Shown here: in pieces, positions 2,342 to 35,904 of the stretch
How the letters are laid out: each line of letters opens with the position of its first letter
How positions within the stretch are numbered: position 1 is the first letter of the stretch
Virus genome (UHGV): UHGV-0042151
Reading direction: 5' to 3' (one strand)
From: a virus
Length of the DNA stretch: 35,904 bases
The notes under the pieces: generated by a model
Seen by the model: only the letters and a program-made list of their open reading frames with translations
Told to the model about the DNA's origin: nothing
The model's database searches: none
Program-made: the position numbers and the translations under genes

Positions 2342-3159
2342 ATGTACATATCCTGTTTGCGTGCCCACTCAGGGCGTTTAATGATTTCCACACCGCCCCA
2401 TTCATCATTGATGCGGCATTCGTGATAGGTATTCAGATCCCGGCGGAACAGAGCGTGCCCGGCATCGACATCCTGCGCATCCAGCTCGAACACGCGTACC
2501 GGATACCGACCACAATCAATGCTTTCGCTCACGGCAAGAAAGAAAAAACCATGCGGCTGACCAGTAACCCTCATTGCGCCTTCGCGGTACATTGCGTCCT
2601 GCACGTGGTAGCGGAATTCCTCGATGTGGCGTGCAAAACGGTCCATATCTGCAACCTTTTTCACGTCGACGATCACGTTGTGCTCGTTCAGCCATTTGTC
2701 TGGACGAATTCGGCACAACTCCCCCGTCTCTTCATCGTTCCAGTACATTGATGCTTCGCAGTAACCAGGTGCTTCCAGCATCCAGCGTGCCGCCGGGTGA
2801 GCCATTGCGCTATCACGCATCAGCTCCAGTTTCCGCCACTGCTCGGCATCAAGTACCGTAATCCCCATATCCGCCACATCACGAAGAAATTCCTCTTCGT
2901 CAGCTTTACCTTGTTTCGTCCGACGATCGAATTTCGGTGAAACAATGAAGCGTTTGTCGAACTCTCCAGGCTCCAGAAGCAGACAGTGCAATGCGGTTCC
3001 CATATCCAGTGCAGACTTTTTCTCTTCGTCTTCTGGTGCTGCCTGAACCCATTTAAGAAGCGCCGGATTCTTGGCAACCATGTCCAGTTGCGACTTACTC
3101 ACGCCGTCACCGGCGTGGTAGTCTTCGTTGCTGATGTCGAAATAAATTCCCGGTTTCAT
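2338..3159 (-). CDS. putative PD-(D/E)XK-family exonuclease (RecE/YqaJ-like partner of the annealing protein)
   Basis: 273-aa ORF; 'VIVDVKKVAD' D-x-K type motif; ATGA start/stop overlaps with both neighbours (3156-3159 and 2338-2341). Confidence 0.6.
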   Translation of the reverse strand: MKPGIYFDISNEDYHAGDGVSKSQLDMVAKNPALLKWVQAAPEDEEKKSALDMGTALHCLLLEPGEFDKRFIVSPKFDRRTKQGKADEEEFLRDVADMGITVLDAEQWRKLELMRDSAMAHPAARWMLEAPGYCEASMYWNDEETGELCRIRPDKWLNEHNVIVDVKKVADMDRFARHIEEFRYHVQDAMYREGAMRVTGQPHGFFFLAVSESIDCGRYPVRVFELDAQDVDAGHALFRRDLNTYHECRINDEWGGVEIIKRPEWARKQDMYI

Positions 3160-3455
3160 GCCGCGTCCCTCTGCCCATCAAGCTGATCAGCCAGATCCCA
3201 GCGGGCGATAATTGCCATTGCCTCGCGCCGGTAGGCATCCATTAGTTCTTCGAACTCAGGGCTGTCTTTAGCGGCCTCCAGTACTTCCTGGCGAACGCCT
3301 TTAACTGTTACAACGTCGAAAGTTGATGCCAGTTGATGAAGCCGGATACTCTCAATCAGTTCAACTTGTCGGTCATATAGCTGTTCTGACAGACGGTAGT
3401 CCTTGTCGAATGCCAGCATGATTTTTTGAAGATTTTTCTGCTGATTAACGTTCAT
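3156..3455 (-). CDS. hypothetical early protein (99 aa)
   Basis: ATG 3455 preceded by GGAGGG SD with 6-nt spacing; stop overlaps exonuclease start. Confidence 0.5.
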   Translation of the reverse strand: MNVNQQKNLQKIMLAFDKDYRLSEQLYDRQVELIESIRLHQLASTFDVVTVKGVRQEVLEAAKDSPEFEELMDAYRREAMAIIARWDLADQLDGQRDAA

Positions 3456-3457
3456 TA

Positions 3458-3610
3458 TCAGCCCTCCCATATCTCGTTATCGTTGGCCACATCGCGAGCT
3501 TCTTTGCTGACGAAAGCCCACTTAATGCCTTCCTGTAAGGTGCGGAACTTCCAGCTCATGAATCCGCATGCAGTAACGCAGTACCAACCGTTGATGATTT
3601 TCCACTGCAT
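3458..3610 (-). CDS. small hypothetical protein (50 aa), first gene of early-left operon
   Basis: Hand-translated 'MQWKIINGWYCVTACGFMSWKFRTLQEGIKWAFVSKEARDVANDNEIWEG'; GAGGT SD 9 nt upstream of ATG 3610; not in the >=60-aa ORF track. Confidence 0.35.
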   Translation of the reverse strand: MQWKIINGWYCVTACGFMSWKFRTLQEGIKWAFVSKEARDVANDNEIWEG

Positions 3611-3629
3611 AACTTGTTACCTCGGTCTG

Positions 3630-3644
3630 TTACCGTTGAGGTAA
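3630..3644. promoter_or_regulatory. palindromic site TTACC-N5-GGTAA (proximal operator of early-left promoter)
   Basis: TTACCGTTGAGGTAA; lies between -10-like element and ATG 3610. Confidence 0.5.
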
Positions 3645-3672
3645 TAATTATGCGTATATGGTTTGATGTCAA
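3644..3672 (-). promoter_or_regulatory. putative sigma70 promoter of early-left operon
   Basis: Minus-strand -35 TTGACA (3672..3667), 17-bp spacer, -10 AATTAT (3649..3644); flanked by two palindromic sites. Confidence 0.45.
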
Positions 3673-3691
3673 TAGATATGAGTTAAAAAAA

Positions 3692-3706
3692 TTACCCGTT
3701 AGGTAA
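3692..3706. promoter_or_regulatory. palindromic site TTACC-N5-GGTAA (distal operator of early-left promoter)
   Basis: TTACCCGTTAGGTAA; 20 bp upstream of the -35; centre 62 bp from site 3630..3644. Confidence 0.5.
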
Positions 3707-3786
3707 TCGAATAGGCAATAAAAAAGCCCCCCCAAAGCGGCGGTTCTTCTTTAAAAAAAAATTTTTTTTTTTTTTTTTTTTTTTTT

Positions 3787-3883
3787 NNNNNNNNNNNNNN
3801 NNNNNNNNNNNNNNNNNNNNNNNNNNNNNNNNNNNNNNNNNNNNNNNNNNNNNNNNNNNNNNNNNNNNNNNNNNNNNNNNNNN
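3787..3883. other. unresolved sequence (97 N) preceded by A9-T25 homopolymer tract
   Basis: Run of N at 3787-3883; track ORFs spanning it are artefacts (X residues). Confidence 0.95.
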
Positions 3884-3896
3884 GAAAAATATGGTT

Positions 3897-4481
3897 TTAT
3901 TGTTTGTTTTTTTCGTTATGGTTGATGACAAATTCAATGTAACTTTCGATCTTTGCTTTCTCGGTTTCGGGTAACAATGCGTAGCGCGAGCGATCATAGT
4001 TGATGGTCGCAGGGTCGTGCGGGTGAATCAGTAATTCATAGCCGTGACGCCCGAATGCGGATGCAACATTCTCCAGGGTGGAAATGGAAACGCTGACCTC
4101 ATTGTTTAACAGGCGGCTGATTGTCACCTGGGCTACGCCGGATGCGCGGTGAAGTTTTCCCTGTGTTGAAAGGTCGCGGCTTTCGCTCATCCAGCGTTCC
4201 AGGTTGTGAGCCGCCAGCTGGCCAATGTCGCTTGGGCCGACAGGCTGAAAACCTTCCTGAGAAAGCGAGCGATCGATATCAAGCCAGTTACGGGGTTTAT
4301 TGGCGGCAGCTTCAATTTTTCGTGCAACCTGGTCGCCGATAACCTTCTTGCCAAGAGCCCAGCGGTTTACCAGATTTGCCTGAGTTCCAAGTTTTTCAGC
4401 CATCCGCGTCTGAACACCATTGAATTCACGGTCGATCAAGTCGTTGAGATTTTGCCTGCGGACGTCCTGGATACTTTTCAT
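3897..4481 (-). CDS. phage repressor-like protein with two tandem XRE/CI-type HTH domains, no S24 peptidase domain
   Basis: 194 aa; HTH-like segments 'MAEKLGTQANLVNRWALGKK' and 'ASGVAQVTISRLLNNEVSVSISTLENVA'; divergent from Cro-like gene; no Ala-Gly/Ser-Lys autocleavage module seen. Confidence 0.65.
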   Translation of the reverse strand: MKSIQDVRRQNLNDLIDREFNGVQTRMAEKLGTQANLVNRWALGKKVIGDQVARKIEAAANKPRNWLDIDRSLSQEGFQPVGPSDIGQLAAHNLERWMSESRDLSTQGKLHRASGVAQVTISRLLNNEVSVSISTLENVASAFGRHGYELLIHPHDPATINYDRSRYALLPETEKAKIESYIEFVINHNEKNKQ

Positions 4482-4536
4482 TTTCTGGAAAATCGCCTCA
4501 TATATGAATCAGTAGATGATTCAATTTAAAGCAATA

Positions 4537-4551
4537 TTACCCAACAGGTAA
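4537..4551. promoter_or_regulatory. palindromic site TTACC-N5-GGTAA in repressor/cro intergenic region
   Basis: TTACCCAACAGGTAA; additional half-sites GGTAA (4563-4567) and TTACC (4586-4590) nearby. Confidence 0.5.
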
Positions 4552-4635
4552 ATGCACCCCACAGGTAACTATCCTTGATTTTTGTTACCTTATGGGTGAA
4601 TATTTATTATCTGAAATAAATATCAGGCAATAGCT

Positions 4636-4866
4636 ATGAGCGATAACGGACATTTCGATTTCAAAAAGCACTGGCTTGCACTTACTCCGGATGAGCGTGA
4701 AGCCTTCGCACAGGAAGCCGGAACGACGAGTCACTATATCCAGACTCACTTAACAGGTAAGCGCAAAATGCCAGGTAAGGTATTGATGAATGGGCTTTTT
4801 AAAGCCTGTAAAACAAGACAATGGCTGCGCTCAAAAGCAGAATTGGCATACTTCTTCTACTCATGA
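4636..4866 (+). CDS. Cro-like small HTH DNA-binding protein
   Basis: 76 aa, divergent to repressor; 'LTPDEREAFAQEAGTTSHYIQ' HTH-like; ends 24 nt before N-run. Confidence 0.5.
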   Translation: MSDNGHFDFKKHWLALTPDEREAFAQEAGTTSHYIQTHLTGKRKMPGKVLMNGLFKACKTRQWLRSKAELAYFFYS

Positions 4867-4889
4867 TATCCAGCCACAACCCTCTGTAN

Positions 4890-5024
4890 NNNNNNNNNNN
4901 NNNNNNNNNNNNNNNNNNNNNNNNNNNNNNNNNNNNNNNNNNNNNNNNNNNNNNNNNNNNNNNNNNNNNNNNNNNNNNNNNNNNNNNNNNNNNNNNNNNN
5001 NNNNNNNNNNNNNNNNNNNNNNNN
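4890..5024. other. unresolved sequence (135 N)
   Basis: Run of N at 4890-5024. Confidence 0.95.
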
Positions 5025-14709: not shown

Positions 14710-14786
14710 TGGCGTGGCATGCAGGATTCGAACCTGCGACCAACCGCTTAGAAGGCGGTTGCTCTGTCCAACTGAGCTAATGCCAC
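14710..14786 (-). tRNA. tRNA-Arg (anticodon UCU)
   Basis: Hand-folded cloverleaf: acceptor GTGGCAT/ATGCCAC, D-arm GCTC-AGTTGGACA-GAGC, anticodon arm ACCGC-CTTCTAA-GCGGT, T-arm GCAGG-TTCGAAT-CCTGC, 3' GCCA; similar to but distinct from E. coli argU as recalled. Confidence 0.9.
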
Positions 14787-19605: not shown

Positions 19606-19941
19606 ATGTCAGGTGAGAAACCAAGATACCGCGTTCTGCGCCTCTCTCATATCCATAACACTCTGTGGCCGGAGGGGGCAGAAATCGAATACGAAGGTGA
19701 GCCTGGTAGCGCACTGGAACCTGTTAACGATGCAGCCAGACAGGCAAAAGCAAAAGTTGCAGGAAAGGTGTCAATGGCAGCAACCAGCACCAAAATCATC
19801 AACGATGTGTCAGATGATGGTGAACTGGATAAGCTCCGTGAAGAGTACGAATTGCTCTTTAACGAGAAGCCACACCATAACGCCAAAGCCGAAACGCTCC
19901 GCGAGAAGATCGCAGATAAGCGTAAAGAACTGGGCGTGTAA
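19606..19941 (+). CDS. hypothetical structural-module protein (111 aa)
   Basis: AAGGTGA SD then ATG 19606. Confidence 0.45.
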   Translation: MSGEKPRYRVLRLSHIHNTLWPEGAEIEYEGEPGSALEPVNDAARQAKAKVAGKVSMAATSTKIINDVSDDGELDKLREEYELLFNEKPHHNAKAETLREKIADKRKELGV

Positions 19942-31201: not shown

Positions 31202-31615
31202 ATGAAGGAATTATTGCTGTTATCGGTATTTTTGATATCCGCTTGCTCGACATCCTATGATGTTTATGACGGTGTTGATAAGGCATATTGCGACAAAGTT
31301 AAAATGGATTTTTCTCTTGCCAAGACGGCGAAGGATAGTTGTATTGATCACTACGTCAAGACTTATACCAAGCCAGCCTCATCGGCATCTGATATTGCTG
31401 AAGGTGCTGTGTTTGAGTGTAACAAGGTGATATCCATCGCAGCGAGTTCTTCATACGATGCTGCTGTATGTGCAATGGCTGAAAGAAACGGCATGTCAGT
31501 GCAAAAAATTAATAGCATGATAAGCAGTAATGACGAAGCCAAAATAAGAACTGATATCAGCTCGGTGAAAAAAGATGCCATGAACAGAGTTGTAAAATAT
31601 CAGTCATCTTTATAA
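31202..31615 (+). CDS. lipoprotein (137 aa), candidate superinfection-exclusion or moron product
   Basis: Signal peptide plus lipobox 'LISAC' then Cys; own terminator. Confidence 0.55.
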   Translation: MKELLLLSVFLISACSTSYDVYDGVDKAYCDKVKMDFSLAKTAKDSCIDHYVKTYTKPASSASDIAEGAVFECNKVISIAASSSYDAAVCAMAERNGMSVQKINSMISSNDEAKIRTDISSVKKDAMNRVVKYQSSL

Positions 31616-31618
31616 GTC

Positions 31619-31630
31619 GTGACATGTCAC
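31619..31630. promoter_or_regulatory. 12-bp perfect palindrome GTGACATGTCAC (copy 3 of 3)
   Basis: Immediately 5' of terminator hairpin. Confidence 0.35.
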
Positions 31631-31631
31631 A

Positions 31632-31655
31632 GGCCGCTTTCGCGGCCTTGTTTTT
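31632..31655 (+). terminator. rho-independent terminator
   Basis: GGCCGC-tttc-GCGGCC followed by TTGTTTTT. Confidence 0.6.
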
Positions 31656-31815
31656 AACGAATGCCACCGCCACCCGGGCGGGAATCCGCAGAACGCCCAC
31701 CGCAGCGGGAGCCGTCAGCAGCAGTGTCGCTGTCGTGCTGACAACGACCGGCAAAGGCCTGAGTTGAAGCTACCAGAGACAACAAAACGAACAGTGCAGC
31801 AAATGCTTTTTTCAT
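31654..31815 (-). CDS. small secreted peptide (53 aa precursor)
   Basis: 'MKKAFAALFVLLSLVASTQAFA' signal peptide then 31-aa Gly/Arg-rich tail with 2 Cys; upstream TTGACG-17-ATAGAT promoter-like. Confidence 0.4.
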   Translation of the reverse strand: MKKAFAALFVLLSLVASTQAFAGRCQHDSDTAADGSRCGGRSADSRPGGGGIR

Positions 31816-31886
31816 TGTGAAATTTCCATCTATAAGCCACCTCAATGTGGCGTCAATGAGTGTAGCACTGACTTTTGTTTCGCCCA

Positions 31887-31909
31887 CAAAAAAGCCCGCA
31901 GCGCGGGCT
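31887..31909 (-). terminator. rho-independent terminator (minus strand)
   Basis: AGCCCGC-gcu-GCGGGCU then U6 on minus strand, starting at the stop codon of the 31908 gene. Confidence 0.5.
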
Positions 31910-32348
31910 ATTCTTCTTCATCATTAAAAAGCGGATTGTTGTTTCCATCTGATGAAAGGAAAGGTATGTGTTCTCTTGAAAATCCAACAATGACAATTTC
32001 ATTATCATTTTTTGCATAATGAATGCATTCATTAGAATGCCTTCCGCCAGGGTTGAAATTTAAGTTAATGGTATAATTCTTAAATGTGTTTGGATACCAT
32101 GTTGGCCCACAATGATAATGCCAATAATTCTCTTGCTCATAATTGTCTGAGCCGGGAATTTTATCATGGTTATCATCAACCCACGAGGGCTTGTTTTTTC
32201 CAACAAGCGCCCTTCCATTGGCAACATCCTCTAAAAAACTTTGTATGATTTTTATTTCATCATCAGTAAGGAAAGGTCCGTCTACAGCGAAAGGGGTGTT
32301 GCTTTCCCCATGTAGAAAACTATTAGATATTCTAATGTTAAACTTCAA
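31908..32348 (-). CDS. hypothetical AT-rich protein (146 aa), second gene of two-gene operon
   Basis: TTG start 32348 with AGGAG SD 6 nt upstream (the track's ATG 32489 start has no SD and overlaps the small ORF); no recognisable domain. Confidence 0.4.
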   Translation of the reverse strand: MKFNIRISNSFLHGESNTPFAVDGPFLTDDEIKIIQSFLEDVANGRALVGKNKPSWVDDNHDKIPGSDNYEQENYWHYHCGPTWYPNTFKNYTINLNFNPGGRHSNECIHYAKNDNEIVIVGFSREHIPFLSSDGNNNPLFNDEEE

Positions 32349-32368
32349 GGAAAACTCCTGATGTGCTT

Positions 32369-32536
32369 CTATTTGGAGCGAAATGCCGCCTTGAAGTCGC
32401 TGAAAGATGTTCCTGTCTGGTAAACCATATCCTTGTCGCGCTCTTTGCTTGCGCGGCCAAGCATAACTTTTCCAATGACATCCCAGCATTGCTTGGCTTG
32501 TTCATTGTGCTGAGTACGATTTTTCAACGCTGTCAT
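32369..32536 (-). CDS. small hypothetical protein (55 aa), first gene of two-gene operon
   Basis: AGGAGG SD 6 nt before ATG 32536; 'MTALKNRTQHNEQAKQCWDVIGKVMLGRASKERDKDMVYQTGTSFSDFKAAFRSK'. Confidence 0.45.
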   Translation of the reverse strand: MTALKNRTQHNEQAKQCWDVIGKVMLGRASKERDKDMVYQTGTSFSDFKAAFRSK

Positions 32537-32548
32537 ATCGCGCCTCCT

Positions 32549-32635: not shown

Positions 32636-33322
32636 TCAGAAGAACCCAGCCTTGTCGTTGATGTACTCCGCGTGGGTCTGGATATCACGCAGGCATTTGC
32701 TCACACCAACAATGTAGCAGAACATGGTGGTCAGCTCCGCCGCCGCGCCCGATACGTCGTGCCCGTCTTCCTGTAACTGGTTCAGCAGATTCATCAGCAG
32801 TGAGTTCTCCGTCAGGCCGAGAACACCAGACGGAGAATGAATCAGGCTGCGGTAGCCGGGCTTCAGTGGGGCACTGTAGGTTTTGTTCTCTATCTTCATT
32901 GCCTGCATCACTGCTGATGCTGTGGCGTTGGCTACCTGGTCGGCAACTATCTTTATGCGTTCTTCCTGCGGGAGCGAGTTTTTAATGTAACTTCCGGTGC
33001 GGCGGATCTGAGGAAGAACCTCACCTGTAACCCATTTACGAAAGCGGTAGGGGATAGTGCCTGGTGTCACTGCGTCGCGGCAGCGGAGGATCAGTGTGTA
33101 GAGGCCTGACTCGTTGATAATATTGGTTTCACCTTGACGGCCTAAGTTAAATTTAGCCCTTTCATCATCATCAAGAGATTTTATTGACATAGTGGGGTTT
33201 GTCAGTTGAAGAGCTTTAATAACGTCTTTGGCAACAAACCAAGGATTTCCATCAATAACAATGGCTCGAATGGTGGCTTCTGATTCAAAATGAAAAACAG
33301 ATGGGGTTACGTTAGCAGTCAT
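32636..33322 (-). CDS. Bro-N domain antirepressor-like protein
   Basis: N-terminus 'IRAIVIDGNPWFVAKDVIKALQL...GLYTLILR' fits Bro-N; C-terminal domain homologous to the 34473..34730 product; AGGTGA SD then ATG 33322. Confidence 0.65.
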   Translation of the reverse strand: MTANVTPSVFHFESEATIRAIVIDGNPWFVAKDVIKALQLTNPTMSIKSLDDDERAKFNLGRQGETNIINESGLYTLILRCRDAVTPGTIPYRFRKWVTGEVLPQIRRTGSYIKNSLPQEERIKIVADQVANATASAVMQAMKIENKTYSAPLKPGYRSLIHSPSGVLGLTENSLLMNLLNQLQEDGHDVSGAAAELTTMFCYIVGVSKCLRDIQTHAEYINDKAGFF

Positions 33323-33481
33323 AGTGATCACCTTTTAGTATGGTTAATCACCACCTGAGGTGCAAATCTCGTTGGTGGTGAGACGTACAGGGTTTGCACT
33401 ACCGGCTAAAAGGACCCGGCGCACCTTTCGGTGCCCCTGCACGTCCCACCATAATTCTGGCATGACTGTGCTATACGCATA

Positions 33482-33503: not shown

Positions 33504-33593
33504 ATGCGCCTTTTAGTAATCCGGGGTGCAAATCCCGGCACTGGATTTTGCCAGTGCCCGATTACTATGGCACAAGAGGAGTGCGATGTAAAT

Positions 33594-33608
33594 TTACCGA
33601 AAAGGTAA
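33594..33608. promoter_or_regulatory. palindromic site TTACC-N5-GGTAA
   Basis: TTACCGAAAAGGTAA; about 90 bp upstream (minus sense) of the 33482 terminator. Confidence 0.45.
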
Positions 33609-33686
33609 TGATAAGCGCGAAAAAACATTAAAATCAACCGTATTTGGTTGATTGCGTTTAACGCTTGATCACCTGAAAGCAAGATA

Positions 33687-33701
33687 TTACCTTTAAGGTA
33701 A
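33687..33701. promoter_or_regulatory. palindromic site TTACC-N5-GGTAA upstream of 33722 gene
   Basis: TTACCTTTAAGGTAA, 20 nt before ATG 33722, just 5' of GAGGA SD. Confidence 0.5.
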
Positions 33702-33721
33702 TGTTATTGTGAGGAAAAGCA

Positions 33722-34450
33722 ATGGAAGTTTTCTGGATAGTTGTTGGTGTGGTTGCGGTGATTATTTACGTTATCAACCAGAACAAGACTAAGATCTCTG
33801 ATCGTACGGTCGTTAATCAGAACAAAACGATAAAGACCGAAGATGGGGAGATAACGATTAATCGTACACAGGTGATAGAGCACACATCTACTCAGTTTCA
33901 AAAAACTGGAGGTAACGCGCCTGATATTTCCGTACCTCCTGCTTATGATAGTGCGGTAATCCAGACATATTATAAACAGCAGGAGTTAGCAAAAGAGAGG
34001 CAACTGATTCAGCCAAAGCCGTTTACAGCTGAGCTTCCACCTGGAGTGTCAACGCGTCCGGCATATCATGGAAGATTCCCTGGTGATGACATATCGTCTC
34101 AGTCATTTAAAAAAGCACCTCAGGCAGTATCAGAGCCAGCAAGAATATCTTCTGTATCGCCGCCAAAAGAAGAATCAGCTAACAGAGTTTCAAGCGGTAG
34201 CAAGCAGTGCTTGCGATGCAGAATAAACCTTCCATATGAAAAATTCAGGAAATCGTCAAAAAATCCGGATGGATTGACTAAGTGGTGTGCAAGGTGTCTC
34301 GATGGCCCAAAGAATACACGTCATATGAAGTGGTGCCCAATTTGTAATGTCCGCAGAAAACGAACCAGCTTTTACCCTAATAATCAAAATGCGGACGGCT
34401 TAATGGCATGGTGCAAAACGTGCTGGGACGAGCACAAAGCGAAACGATAG
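33722..34450 (+). CDS. membrane-anchored protein with duplicated C-terminal zinc-ribbon (CxxC...WCxxC) modules
   Basis: N-terminal TM helix 'FWIVVGVVAVIIYVI'; 'CLRCRIN...WCARCLD' and 'WCPICNV...WCKTCWD'. Confidence 0.5.
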   Translation: MEVFWIVVGVVAVIIYVINQNKTKISDRTVVNQNKTIKTEDGEITINRTQVIEHTSTQFQKTGGNAPDISVPPAYDSAVIQTYYKQQELAKERQLIQPKPFTAELPPGVSTRPAYHGRFPGDDISSQSFKKAPQAVSEPARISSVSPPKEESANRVSSGSKQCLRCRINLPYEKFRKSSKNPDGLTKWCARCLDGPKNTRHMKWCPICNVRRKRTSFYPNNQNADGLMAWCKTCWDEHKAKR

Positions 34451-34474
34451 GCCGCTCTTGCGGCCTTTAAATTT
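34450..34474. terminator. bidirectional intrinsic terminator between convergent genes
   Basis: GGCCGC-tctt-GCGGCC followed by TTTAAATTT. Confidence 0.5.
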
Positions 34475-34730
34475 ACCGGGTTTGTTTTCGTAATTGTTCG
34501 GCACAATAGTCGAGATGTGTTTGCAGATCCTGCATAGACATCTGTGAGCTGGTGACGTAGTTAATCAGTGCAGTCAGTTCGGCAAGTGGGCCATCGACAT
34601 TAAATCCATCCTTATCGAGATCCCGGAGTAATTTCATCAAGTGCGATCCCTCCACCAGTGACCTGACGCCTCCCGGCGTGTGAATCCTTTCGGTAAATCC
34701 GTCTTCCAGTGGATAGTGATACTGCTGCAT
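34473..34730 (-). CDS. small antirepressor-like protein (85 aa), SOS-regulated
   Basis: GGAGAA SD then ATG 34730; homologous to C-terminal domain of Bro-N protein ('SLVEGSHLMKLLRDLDKDGFNVDGPLAELT' vs 'GLTENSLLMNLLNQLQEDGHDVSGAAAELT'); LexA box 22 nt upstream. Confidence 0.55.
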   Translation of the reverse strand: MQQYHYPLEDGFTERIHTPGGVRSLVEGSHLMKLLRDLDKDGFNVDGPLAELTALINYVTSSQMSMQDLQTHLDYCAEQLRKQTR

Positions 34731-34751
34731 CTTATCTTCTCCATGCAATAA

Positions 34752-34767
34752 CTGTATATTTATACAG
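34752..34767. promoter_or_regulatory. LexA (SOS) box
   Basis: CTGTATATTTATACAG = CTGT-N8-ACAG with AT-rich core; extended AACTGTATATTTATACAGTA matches 18/20 of the consensus TACTGTATATATATACAGTA. Confidence 0.6.
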
Positions 34768-34806
34768 TAGCAAATAATTTGTTTGCTATCCAGCACGTTT
34801 TGCAAA

Positions 34807-34821
34807 TTACCTGAAAGGTAA
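34807..34821. promoter_or_regulatory. palindromic site TTACC-N5-GGTAA between antirepressor and tailspike genes
   Basis: TTACCTGAAAGGTAA. Confidence 0.45.
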
Positions 34822-34925
34822 TATCTATTCGTATTCACAGTCTTTCTATCCATATATGGTTTTTCAGGTAATAGAATAACCAGATATGCGGCGCAACGGG
34901 TGCTGCGACTATCTGGAGATTTAAC

Positions 34926-35904
34926 ATGACGGTCTCAACCGAAGTTGACCACAACGAATACACCGGTAACGGCGTTACGACATCATTTCCGTATACCTTC
35001 CGTATTTTCAAAAAAACCGACCTGGTTGTTCAGGTGTCTGACCTGAACGGGAACGTAACAGAATTGGTTCTGGATACCGGTTATAAGGTAACTGGAGCGG
35101 GCACTTATAGTGGCGGTGAAGTGGTTCTCCCGTCGCCGCTTGCTGCTGGCTGGCGAATTACGATAGAGCGTGTGCTTGATGTGGTGCAGGAGACTGATCT
35201 TCGCAATCAGGGAAAATTTTTCCCCGAAGTTCATGAAGATGCATTTGACTACCTGACGATGCTGATCCAGCGATGTTTTGGGTGGTTCAGACGTGCATTG
35301 ATGAAACCATCTTTGCTTGCAAAATATTACGATGCAAAGCAAAACAAAATTTCTAACCTTGCAGATCCATCATTTGAGCAGGACGCTGTAAATAATCGCT
35401 CAATGCGTAATTATGTCGATGCTGCAATCGCCGGGGTTGTTGGTGGTTTTGGTTGGTTTATACCGTCAGGAAGCGGGGCAAGACAACGAACATTTCAAAG
35501 CAAAATGAGGGATATAATTTCTCCTTGTGATTACGAAGATAATATTTTTATGATTAAGGAGTTGATATCCAAAGGCAAAAATGCCGCTGTTTTTAACTCA
35601 TATTATACTTTTGTTATTACTGTTGGCGAATGGGGTGATTACCCTACACTCAAAGATGCAATCATTGCAGCCCAGTCAATGAGACCTATGTGGGATGGTG
35701 GTAATGCTTTCTGCGAAATAAGAATTAAGACCGGGCATATTATCAACTATCAAATTGAATTCAGTTCAGGTGTTGATTTGTCTTGGATTAAAATAACATC
35801 AGAAGACTCAGTGGTTTTCTCTGACACTCGTTTGTTTACTAAAATCGTTAGAACGTATTACGAATACAAGTATTTATTTTACATTTGCGATGCAGCAAAA
35901 AGTC
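34926..35904 (+). CDS. tailspike / tail fibre protein, 3'-truncated at window edge
   Basis: Open frame from ATG 34926 to end of window; N-terminus 'EYTGNGVTTSFPYTFRIFKKTDLVVQV' resembles the conserved particle-binding domain of podovirus tail fibres (T7 gp17-like pattern) as recalled; absent from ORF track because no stop is reached. Confidence 0.7.
   Translation, partial: MTVSTEVDHNEYTGNGVTTSFPYTFRIFKKTDLVVQVSDLNGNVTELVLDTGYKVTGAGTYSGGEVVLPSPLAAGWRITIERVLDVVQETDLRNQGKFFPEVHEDAFDYLTMLIQRCFGWFRRALMKPSLLAKYYDAKQNKISNLADPSFEQDAVNNRSMRNYVDAAIAGVVGGFGWFIPSGSGARQRTFQSKMRDIISPCDYEDNIFMIKELISKGKNAAVFNSYYTFVITVGEWGDYPTLKDAIIAAQSMRPMWDGGNAFCEIRIKTGHIINYQIEFSSGVDLSWIKITSEDSVVFSDTRLFTKIVRTYYEYKYLFYICDAAKS

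Follow-up and report, generated by a model that had tools for sequence, protein, structure and literature searches.

In the Salmonella phage SPC32H, a member of the genus Uetakevirus, the gene for a small antirepressor, Ant, is controlled by LexA, and Ant binds the immunity repressor Rep, which itself stays uncleaved, disassembles the Rep tetramer and releases Rep from its operator DNA (PMC9638917 and PMC9986798). This switch has been published (Kim & Ryu 2013, J Virol 87:11775; Kim et al. 2016, PNAS 113:E2480; cited in PMC7380047 and PMC9638917), and structures from SPC32H are deposited as PDB 5D50 and 5D4Z. Here we describe the corresponding locus in the viral genome UHGV-0042151, analysed over its full length of 35,904 nucleotides (nt; the window), in which a gene for an SPC32H-type antirepressor of 85 amino acids (aa), ant (34473..34730, minus strand, stop codon included), is preceded by a near-consensus LexA (SOS) box and accompanied by a distant gene, rep, for an SPC32H-type repressor. 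Comparison with SPC32H makes it very probable that the window phage carries the same LexA/Ant/Rep antirepression switch. As the same genus, a solved structure and a natural operator mutant are already on record, this is a correct rediscovery and not a new prediction. The switch has been worked out genetically and structurally in SPC32H, so there is no new biology here, and the value lies in annotation and prediction.

Antirepressors under LexA control are also described in phages outside this genus. Tum of phage 186 is likewise LexA-repressed, counteracts a CI repressor that is not cleavable and is encoded far from the immunity region; it differs from Ant in its length (146 aa), in its RefSeq label (DinI-like) and in its origin, 186 being a P2-like myovirus. 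Pairwise BLASTP of Ant against Tum gave no significant similarity (16.5 bits, E = 0.061). Ant is said by Kim and Ryu to be structurally distinct from the antirepressors of sipho- and myoviruses. GfoA and GfhA of Gifsy-1 and Gifsy-3 are small, LexA-controlled, encoded outside the immunity region and active on non-cleavable repressors, which they bind and release from DNA (Lemire et al. 2011, PMC3121763); they come from lambdoid siphoviruses, and their likeness to Ant is taken here from their functional description. A sequence-only reading of the window had assigned its locus to a Gifsy/186-Tum/Fels-2 type of mechanism. The mechanistic analogy stands, and kinship with Tum does not (E = 0.06): Ant is predicted to follow the logic of Tum and GfoA and is itself a member of the SPC32H Ant family, and every feature of that switch that can be looked for in sequence was found at this locus.

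The 85-aa protein matches a single PDB entry, 5D50, its residues 2-84 aligning with residues 3-85 of chain E, ‘Anti-repressor protein’ (88% identity, E = 4e-47), and by tblastn the counterpart of 5D50_E is the annotated ant of SPC32H (88% identity). It is thus a stand-alone protein with full-length homology to the crystallised Ant of ∼86 aa. It also matches PHROG 450 (E = 9e-48) and is 100% identical to a ‘hypothetical protein’ of vB_EcoP_ZX5, 97.6% identical to phiV10p24 and 84% identical to gp19 of epsilon15. The latter two, phiV10 gp24 (PhiV10p24) and epsilon15 gp19, are Ant orthologues annotated only as ‘hypothetical protein’, and no experiments on either were found in the searchable literature. 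Neither a Bro-N (PF02498) nor a P22-type Ant domain was detected in the 85-aa protein, which has no Pfam match above threshold, and no Ant family was found in Pfam or NCBIfam; a DUF724 match was rejected as spurious (17.6 bits against a cut-off of 38.4). The mechanical list of open reading frames (ORFs) gives a 126-aa version of the gene (ATG 34853). We discarded it in favour of the 85-aa start because the extension spans the box, is not conserved in relatives and makes the product unlike the 86-aa crystallised protein.

Upstream of ant lies the sequence AACTGTATATTTATACAGTA (34750-34769; core CTGT-N8-ACAG at 34752-34767), which agrees with the 20-nt LexA consensus TACTGTATATATATACAGTA at 18 of 20 positions (2 mismatches). 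It is the only match with ≤3 mismatches in the window, and none of 100 dinucleotide-preserving shuffles of the window gave such a match. The looser pattern CTGT-N8-ACAG occurs three times in the window, the other two copies having GC-rich spacers, while the ant copy has the AT-rich spacer of an E. coli-type box and comes near to TACTG(TA)5CAGTA. An approximate weight matrix, built from 20 E. coli SOS boxes, scores the ant box at 28.3 bits, higher than all 20 training boxes, and the runner-up in the window at 9.4 bits; scanning the whole window with it revealed no second LexA box, for instance upstream of the Bro-N gene described below. The core is 22 nt from the ant start codon (ATG 34730, minus strand), so the near-consensus box that the sequence-only reading had placed at this distance is borne out and is unique in the window.

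The box is also conserved in relatives. We aligned the ant-tailspike intergenic region of nine phages (the window, phiV10, SPC32H, SPC32N, epsilon15, Tyrion, BUCT554 and two Klebsiella phages) and found the box in matching columns in all nine, with a variable 8-nt spacer that reads, in the sense of ant, ATATTTAT in the window and ATGTTTAT in SPC32H. Within the aligned stretch one base sets SPC32N apart from SPC32H, a C-to-A change inside the ACAG arm of the box; the window carries the wild-type C at this position. Kim and Ryu reportedly describe SPC32N as a LexA-site mutant in which Ant expression is constitutive and stable lysogeny fails. Scanning a single genome for each bacterial species added eight prophage loci, from Citrobacter (two), Candidatus Erwinia dacicola, Superficieibacter, Pseudocitrobacter, Scandinavium, Kluyvera and Klebsiella. 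In all eight, the top-scoring LexA-like site of the 6-kb locus (13.7-25.5 bits) is found 24-26 nt upstream of ant; five keep CTGT-N8-ACAG, and the other three, like the two Klebsiella phages of the alignment, have ATGT as the left arm. Altogether the box is found at the equivalent place in 17 phage and prophage loci from ∼10 genera, and arms that are kept around a spacer that is free to vary are the pattern expected of a protein-binding site. The ATGT arm marks a Klebsiella/Kluyvera/Superficieibacter branch (loci L005, L006, L016, L019 and L020), which scores 13.7-19.1 bits as against 23.6-25.5 bits in the other five prophage loci; LexA could bind more weakly, and Ant expression could be leakier, in this branch.

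A candidate ant promoter (34764..34792, minus strand) consists of a –35 hexamer TGGATA (34792..34787), a 17-nt spacer and a –10 hexamer TACTGT (34769..34764), and CTGGA in the –35 region is invariant in the nine aligned phages. At the annotated p95 promoter of phage 186 the –10 hexamer TACTGT forms the first 6 nt of the LexA site TACTGTATGTTTATACAGTA. Judging from conservation and from this geometry, it is plausible that ant has the same layout, with its –10 hexamer TACTGT being the left arm of the LexA box. A Shine-Dalgarno sequence, GGAG (34739..34742, minus strand), read directly from the sequence, precedes the ant ATG by 8 nt and is likewise invariant in the nine-phage alignment. At the other end of the gene the terminator scan located a GC-rich hairpin (34449..34466), terminator-like on the plus strand, between a 242-aa gene and the ant stop codon.

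The proposed target of Ant is encoded by rep (3897..4481, minus strand; 194 aa). Residues 1-190 of this protein match residues 2-197 of chain A of 5D50, ‘Repressor’, over the full length (E = 1.7e-41). With Ant matching 5D50_E and Rep matching 5D50_A, the window encodes each partner of the crystallised Rep-Ant complex. In Pfam Rep matches helix-turn-helix (HTH) families only and has no Peptidase_S24 autocleavage domain, in keeping with the architecture of SPC32H Rep and with the earlier statement that the repressor at 3897..4481 has no visible autocleavage domain. Window Rep shares 99.5% identity with the phiV10 repressor and 41% with SPC32H Rep; with the latter, identity is highest in the N-terminal domain (54%) and lower at the C-terminus (46%), in the middle domain (31%) and in the linker (19%). 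In an alignment of six Reps, overall identity between the E. coli and Salmonella branches is about 42%, and the invariant parts are the putative recognition helix NLVNRW and a C-terminal segment (160-189) with I160, Y162, D163, Y167, L170, P171, E174, K175, K177, I178, F184 and N189. Repressors of the SPC32H Rep type combine an N-terminal HTH, a middle HTH-like domain and a C-terminal domain. The last of these is reported to mediate tetramerisation and Ant binding (PMC9986798). Ant is far better conserved than Rep (88% versus 41% identity to SPC32H), and the invariant helix and C-terminal domain would allow one conserved Ant to serve diverged Reps. The identities of the two proteins do not covary (Tyrion, Ant 85.5% and Rep 77%; Klebsiella BUCT711, Ant about 63% and Rep 44%), a pattern that points to the swapping of immunity regions while the Ant interface stayed constant.

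With ≤2 mismatches allowed, the window has 14 copies of the palindrome ATTACC-N5-GGTAAT (0.86 expected), mostly in intergenic positions; the 17-nt sites start at 3629, 3691, 4536, 5046, 6974, 7036, 11900, 11918, 15108, 24382, 32548, 33593, 33686 and 34806. One copy, ATTACCCAACAGGTAAA (4536..4552), lies between rep and a cro-like gene (4636..4866), and two more (3629-3645 and 3691-3707) lie downstream of rep. In the ant-tailspike intergenic region there is a perfect 17-bp copy, ATTACCTGAAAGGTAAT (34806..34822), 14 nt upstream of the candidate –35 hexamer; its half-sites are invariant in all nine aligned phages, and the site was found in all eight prophages. SPC32H has palindrome copies at equivalent places, and in the GenBank record of epsilon15 the equivalent sites are annotated as ‘protein_bind: repressor’. 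These palindromes, including the one at 34806-34822, are probably Rep operators. The palindrome is kept between the two branches despite Reps that are only about 42% identical, and the NLVNRW helix is invariant.

The surroundings of ant are those of an epsilon15-like phage. E. coli phage TL-2011b matches the region at 96% identity, further close relatives (phiV10, vB_EcoP_ZX5, phiv142-3 and the O157 typing phages 9 and 10) all belong to Uetakevirus, and by these matches the window is a phiV10/TL-2011b-like temperate podovirus of that genus (epsilon15-like). Gene order is shared with SPC32H, in which a gene for a large injection-type protein is followed by ant on the opposite strand (19676..19936, minus), by the divergent tailspike gene (from 20134, plus) and, at a distance, by rep (33739..34335). 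In the window ant likewise lies between the last injection-protein gene and the divergent tailspike gene, of which the 5′ part is included (34926..35904, plus strand; the gene exceeds the window and is annotated as tailspike or tail fiber in relatives), and rep is ∼30 kb away in window coordinates. An antirepressor gene beside the tailspike gene (ATG 34926) and far from the immunity region is what the sequence-only reading had described. The two phages thus agree in genus, in the length of Ant, in Rep architecture over the full length, in the position of the box relative to ant, in gene order and in the placement of 17-bp palindromes. They differ in host (E. coli for the window phage, Salmonella for SPC32H), in the sequence of Rep and in the 3.3 kb that separate the injection-protein gene from ant in the window, an accessory island that includes a second antirepressor with isrK and C4 RNAs and is lacking in SPC32H.

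If the window phage follows SPC32H, host LexA would occupy 34750-34769 in the lysogen and keep ant silent, as the box would overlap the ant promoter or sit immediately downstream of it. Upon DNA damage activated RecA would promote the self-cleavage of LexA, and ant would be transcribed and translated. Ant would then bind Rep, which RecA cannot be expected to cleave, and disassemble the DNA-binding Rep tetramer, so that the operators (probably the ATTACC-N5-GGTAAT sites) would be freed and, with Rep released, the lytic genes expressed. We infer this sequence of events for the window phage from the likeness to SPC32H, and the hexamers and operators named here are likewise candidates. The orthology of Ant, Rep and the box to the characterised switch supports the earlier proposal that induction would proceed via an SOS-derepressed antirepressor and not via repressor cleavage. 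A microcin that damages DNA induces prophages of the phiV10 species 21- to 47-fold (bioRxiv 10.64898/2026.05.26.727859), in line with an SOS input.

The accessory island includes a second gene related to ant (32636..33322, minus strand; ATG 33322), whose 228-aa product combines a Bro-N domain (Pfam, E = 5.6e-20) with an Ant-like C-terminal domain. Over 78 aa its C-terminus shares 40% identity with Ant (E = 8e-16), 22 residues do not vary among the Ant orthologues and this domain, and both proteins match PHROG 450, the fusion also matching PHROG 130 ‘anti-repressor Ant’; the homology that the sequence-only reading had noticed between the 85-aa protein and the C-terminal domain of the Bro-N protein is thereby confirmed. 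The Ant-equivalent part of the fusion is this C-terminal, non-Pfam domain, and a search of the window for a third Ant-like domain found none. We place the start of the gene at ATG 33322 and reject GTG 33331 because the ribosome-binding site AAGGTG abuts the GTG but precedes the ATG by 6 nt.

Upstream of the fusion gene, its leader contains a C4 antisense RNA (RF01695; 33371..33456, minus strand; 77.8 bits against an Rfam gathering threshold of 45), and upstream of C4 there is an isrK small RNA with its own terminator (RF01394; 33481..33557, minus strand; 67.4 bits against 50). By eye, the C4 loop GUCCUUUUAG shows complementarity to CUAAAAGG at 33338..33331, where the fusion gene has its ribosome-binding site, and the 390-nt leader folds far better than shuffled sequence (z = –6.5). 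Two operator-like palindromes (33593-33609, 1 mismatch; 33686-33702, perfect) lie upstream of isrK, and we infer that Rep-type palindromes control the gene. TL-2011b has isrK and C4 as well (L001 3330-5430). The P22 sar antisense RNA gave a borderline match (44.8 bits; gathering threshold 43) in the TL-2011b accessory region (L001 1141-1208, minus strand); no counterpart in the window reached the Rfam threshold.

This layout has models among known immunity loci. In immI of P1 and P7 (c4 RNA-icd-ant) the order is operator, c4, ant, the same as at the Bro-N/Ant locus and at isrK-anrP of Gifsy-1. P1/P7 immI, the isrK-orf45-anrP locus of Gifsy-1 and P22 immI are models for the Bro-N/Ant gene, an antirepressor gene that follows cis-encoded regulatory RNAs, and not for the small Ant. 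In Gifsy-1, IsrK controls translation of the antirepressor (PMC4825925); the window differs in that no orf45-like ORF was found upstream of, and overlapping, the Bro-N start, where the frame closes after 2 codons. The immI region of P22 (mnt-arc-ant-sar, beside tailspike gene 9) resembles the Bro-N/Ant gene in adjoining a tailspike gene and a regulatory RNA, and differs in that the window lacks arc and mnt homologues.

Because isrK, C4 and operator-like palindromes precede it, the fusion looks like a differently controlled second antirepressor, and the two proteins probably share one Rep-binding domain while being wired to different inputs. We tentatively suggest, as a possibility well short of an even chance, that this phage and most of its prophage relatives have a two-tier circuit in which LexA-controlled Ant would be the SOS sensor and the fusion would stand behind Rep-type operators, isrK and C4; the fusion would then switch on only once Rep starts to fail, or on superinfection. 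If so, it could amplify the response in a feed-forward manner or induce other prophages in trans. In six of the eight prophages (L014, L015, L016, L018, L019 and L020, at about 2950-4300) the box, ant, palindrome, isrK, C4 and fusion follow each other on one strand, so that transcription from the LexA-controlled promoter might read through into the second module. The window and TL-2011b have a 242-aa zinc-ribbon gene (33722..34450), on the strand opposite to ant, between ant and the palindrome. No description of a dual antirepressor arrangement was found in the Uetakevirus literature searched, and the RNA-controlled second antirepressor is the only part that may be new.

Several points weigh against assigning induction to the small Ant as in SPC32H. 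For the E. coli members LexA binding, the ant transcript and Ant-Rep binding are predicted from sequence, and the promoter and operator details of SPC32H itself were taken from secondary citations and GenBank annotation. A simple sigma-70 scan of 34300-35000 gave no consensus promoter, and, identity between this Rep and that of SPC32H being only 41% (31% for the middle domain), the retention of the Ant interface is judged from conserved residues. Given the second antirepressor-type gene, Ant may moreover not be the sole route to induction. In its strongest form this last point would make the fusion, controlled by RNA and operator, the main or a redundant antirepressor, with LexA control of ant being real but Ant only priming or modulating the response. 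The fusion bears the same Ant-like domain as the small Ant, the tandem order is kept in six of eight prophages, and its homologue in ZX5 (ORF4, 81.8% identical), a near-identical phage with the same Rep, cut lysogen counts about 1000-fold when overexpressed; that 2022 study tested only the Bro-N ‘anti-repressor’, leaving LexA, SPC32H and the small Ant unmentioned (PMC9782041). We nevertheless consider a leading role of the fusion unlikely, as SPC32H and epsilon15 lack it, yet SPC32H reportedly switches via Ant alone. Further, no LexA-like site lies near the fusion gene, even the runner-up in the window being far weaker than the ant box, so the fusion would have no direct SOS input and the small Ant would be the only SOS-wired element.

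The greater conservation of Ant than of Rep would also fit a protein that is not bound to one immunity type, and Ant might then act mainly in trans on the repressors of other prophages, a Gifsy-type crosstalk for which cross-acting antirepressors are documented (Lemire et al. 2011, PMC3121763), or on another non-Rep target. This is very unlikely in our view, as Ant is always accompanied by an SPC32H-type Rep in the phage genomes examined, and the invariant NLVNRW helix and C-terminal domain of Rep already explain how one Ant serves diverged Reps. As to the box, palindromes can occur in AT-rich intergenic DNA, and this one might be a chance palindrome or a promoter element unrelated to LexA, with induction proceeding otherwise, for example by RecA-dependent cleavage of Rep. 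Chance is hard to reconcile with the outcome of the shuffles, with CTGT/ACAG arms kept across 17 loci (five with the ATGT left arm) while the 8-nt spacer varies, and with the single base change of SPC32N falling in an arm, and cleavage with a Rep that lacks an S24 domain; we regard this explanation as scarcely credible. Control of ant by LexA and of Rep by Ant, as in SPC32H, thus remains by far the best account of the locus.

Of 5,426 complete E. coli genomes, 531 (∼10%) carry the segment with ant and its box (34473-34930), nearly always as a single chromosomal copy, and in all eight matches listed among these 531 genomes RefSeq labels the ant ORF ‘hypothetical protein’. Recognising ant explains how such prophages respond to DNA-damaging agents and bacteriocins despite a non-cleavable repressor. 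By-products of the analysis are this annotation gap and the RNA-controlled second antirepressor, which is the only part that might repay further work.

The stretch between the injection-protein gene and the Bro-N gene (31202-32489) is an accessory island absent from SPC32H. It encodes a 137-aa putative lipoprotein (LISAC lipobox), a 77-aa membrane-associated protein and a 193-aa protein, the last of which is labelled YafO-family toxin in the RefSeq record of TL-2011b and has no match in Pfam or NCBIfam; the operator-like palindrome at 32548 lies upstream of these genes. Around the immunity region there are two runs of N (97 and 136 bases, within 3740-3883 and 4889-5024), the first preceded by a long A-run and then a T-run, and both look like assembly or scaffolding artefacts. 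A 101-aa ORF (3692..3997) spans the first run and was dismissed as not real. Between the terminase and portal regions the window encodes a tRNA-Arg (anticodon TCT; 14710-14786, minus strand), and SPC32H has a tRNA-Arg at the equivalent place.

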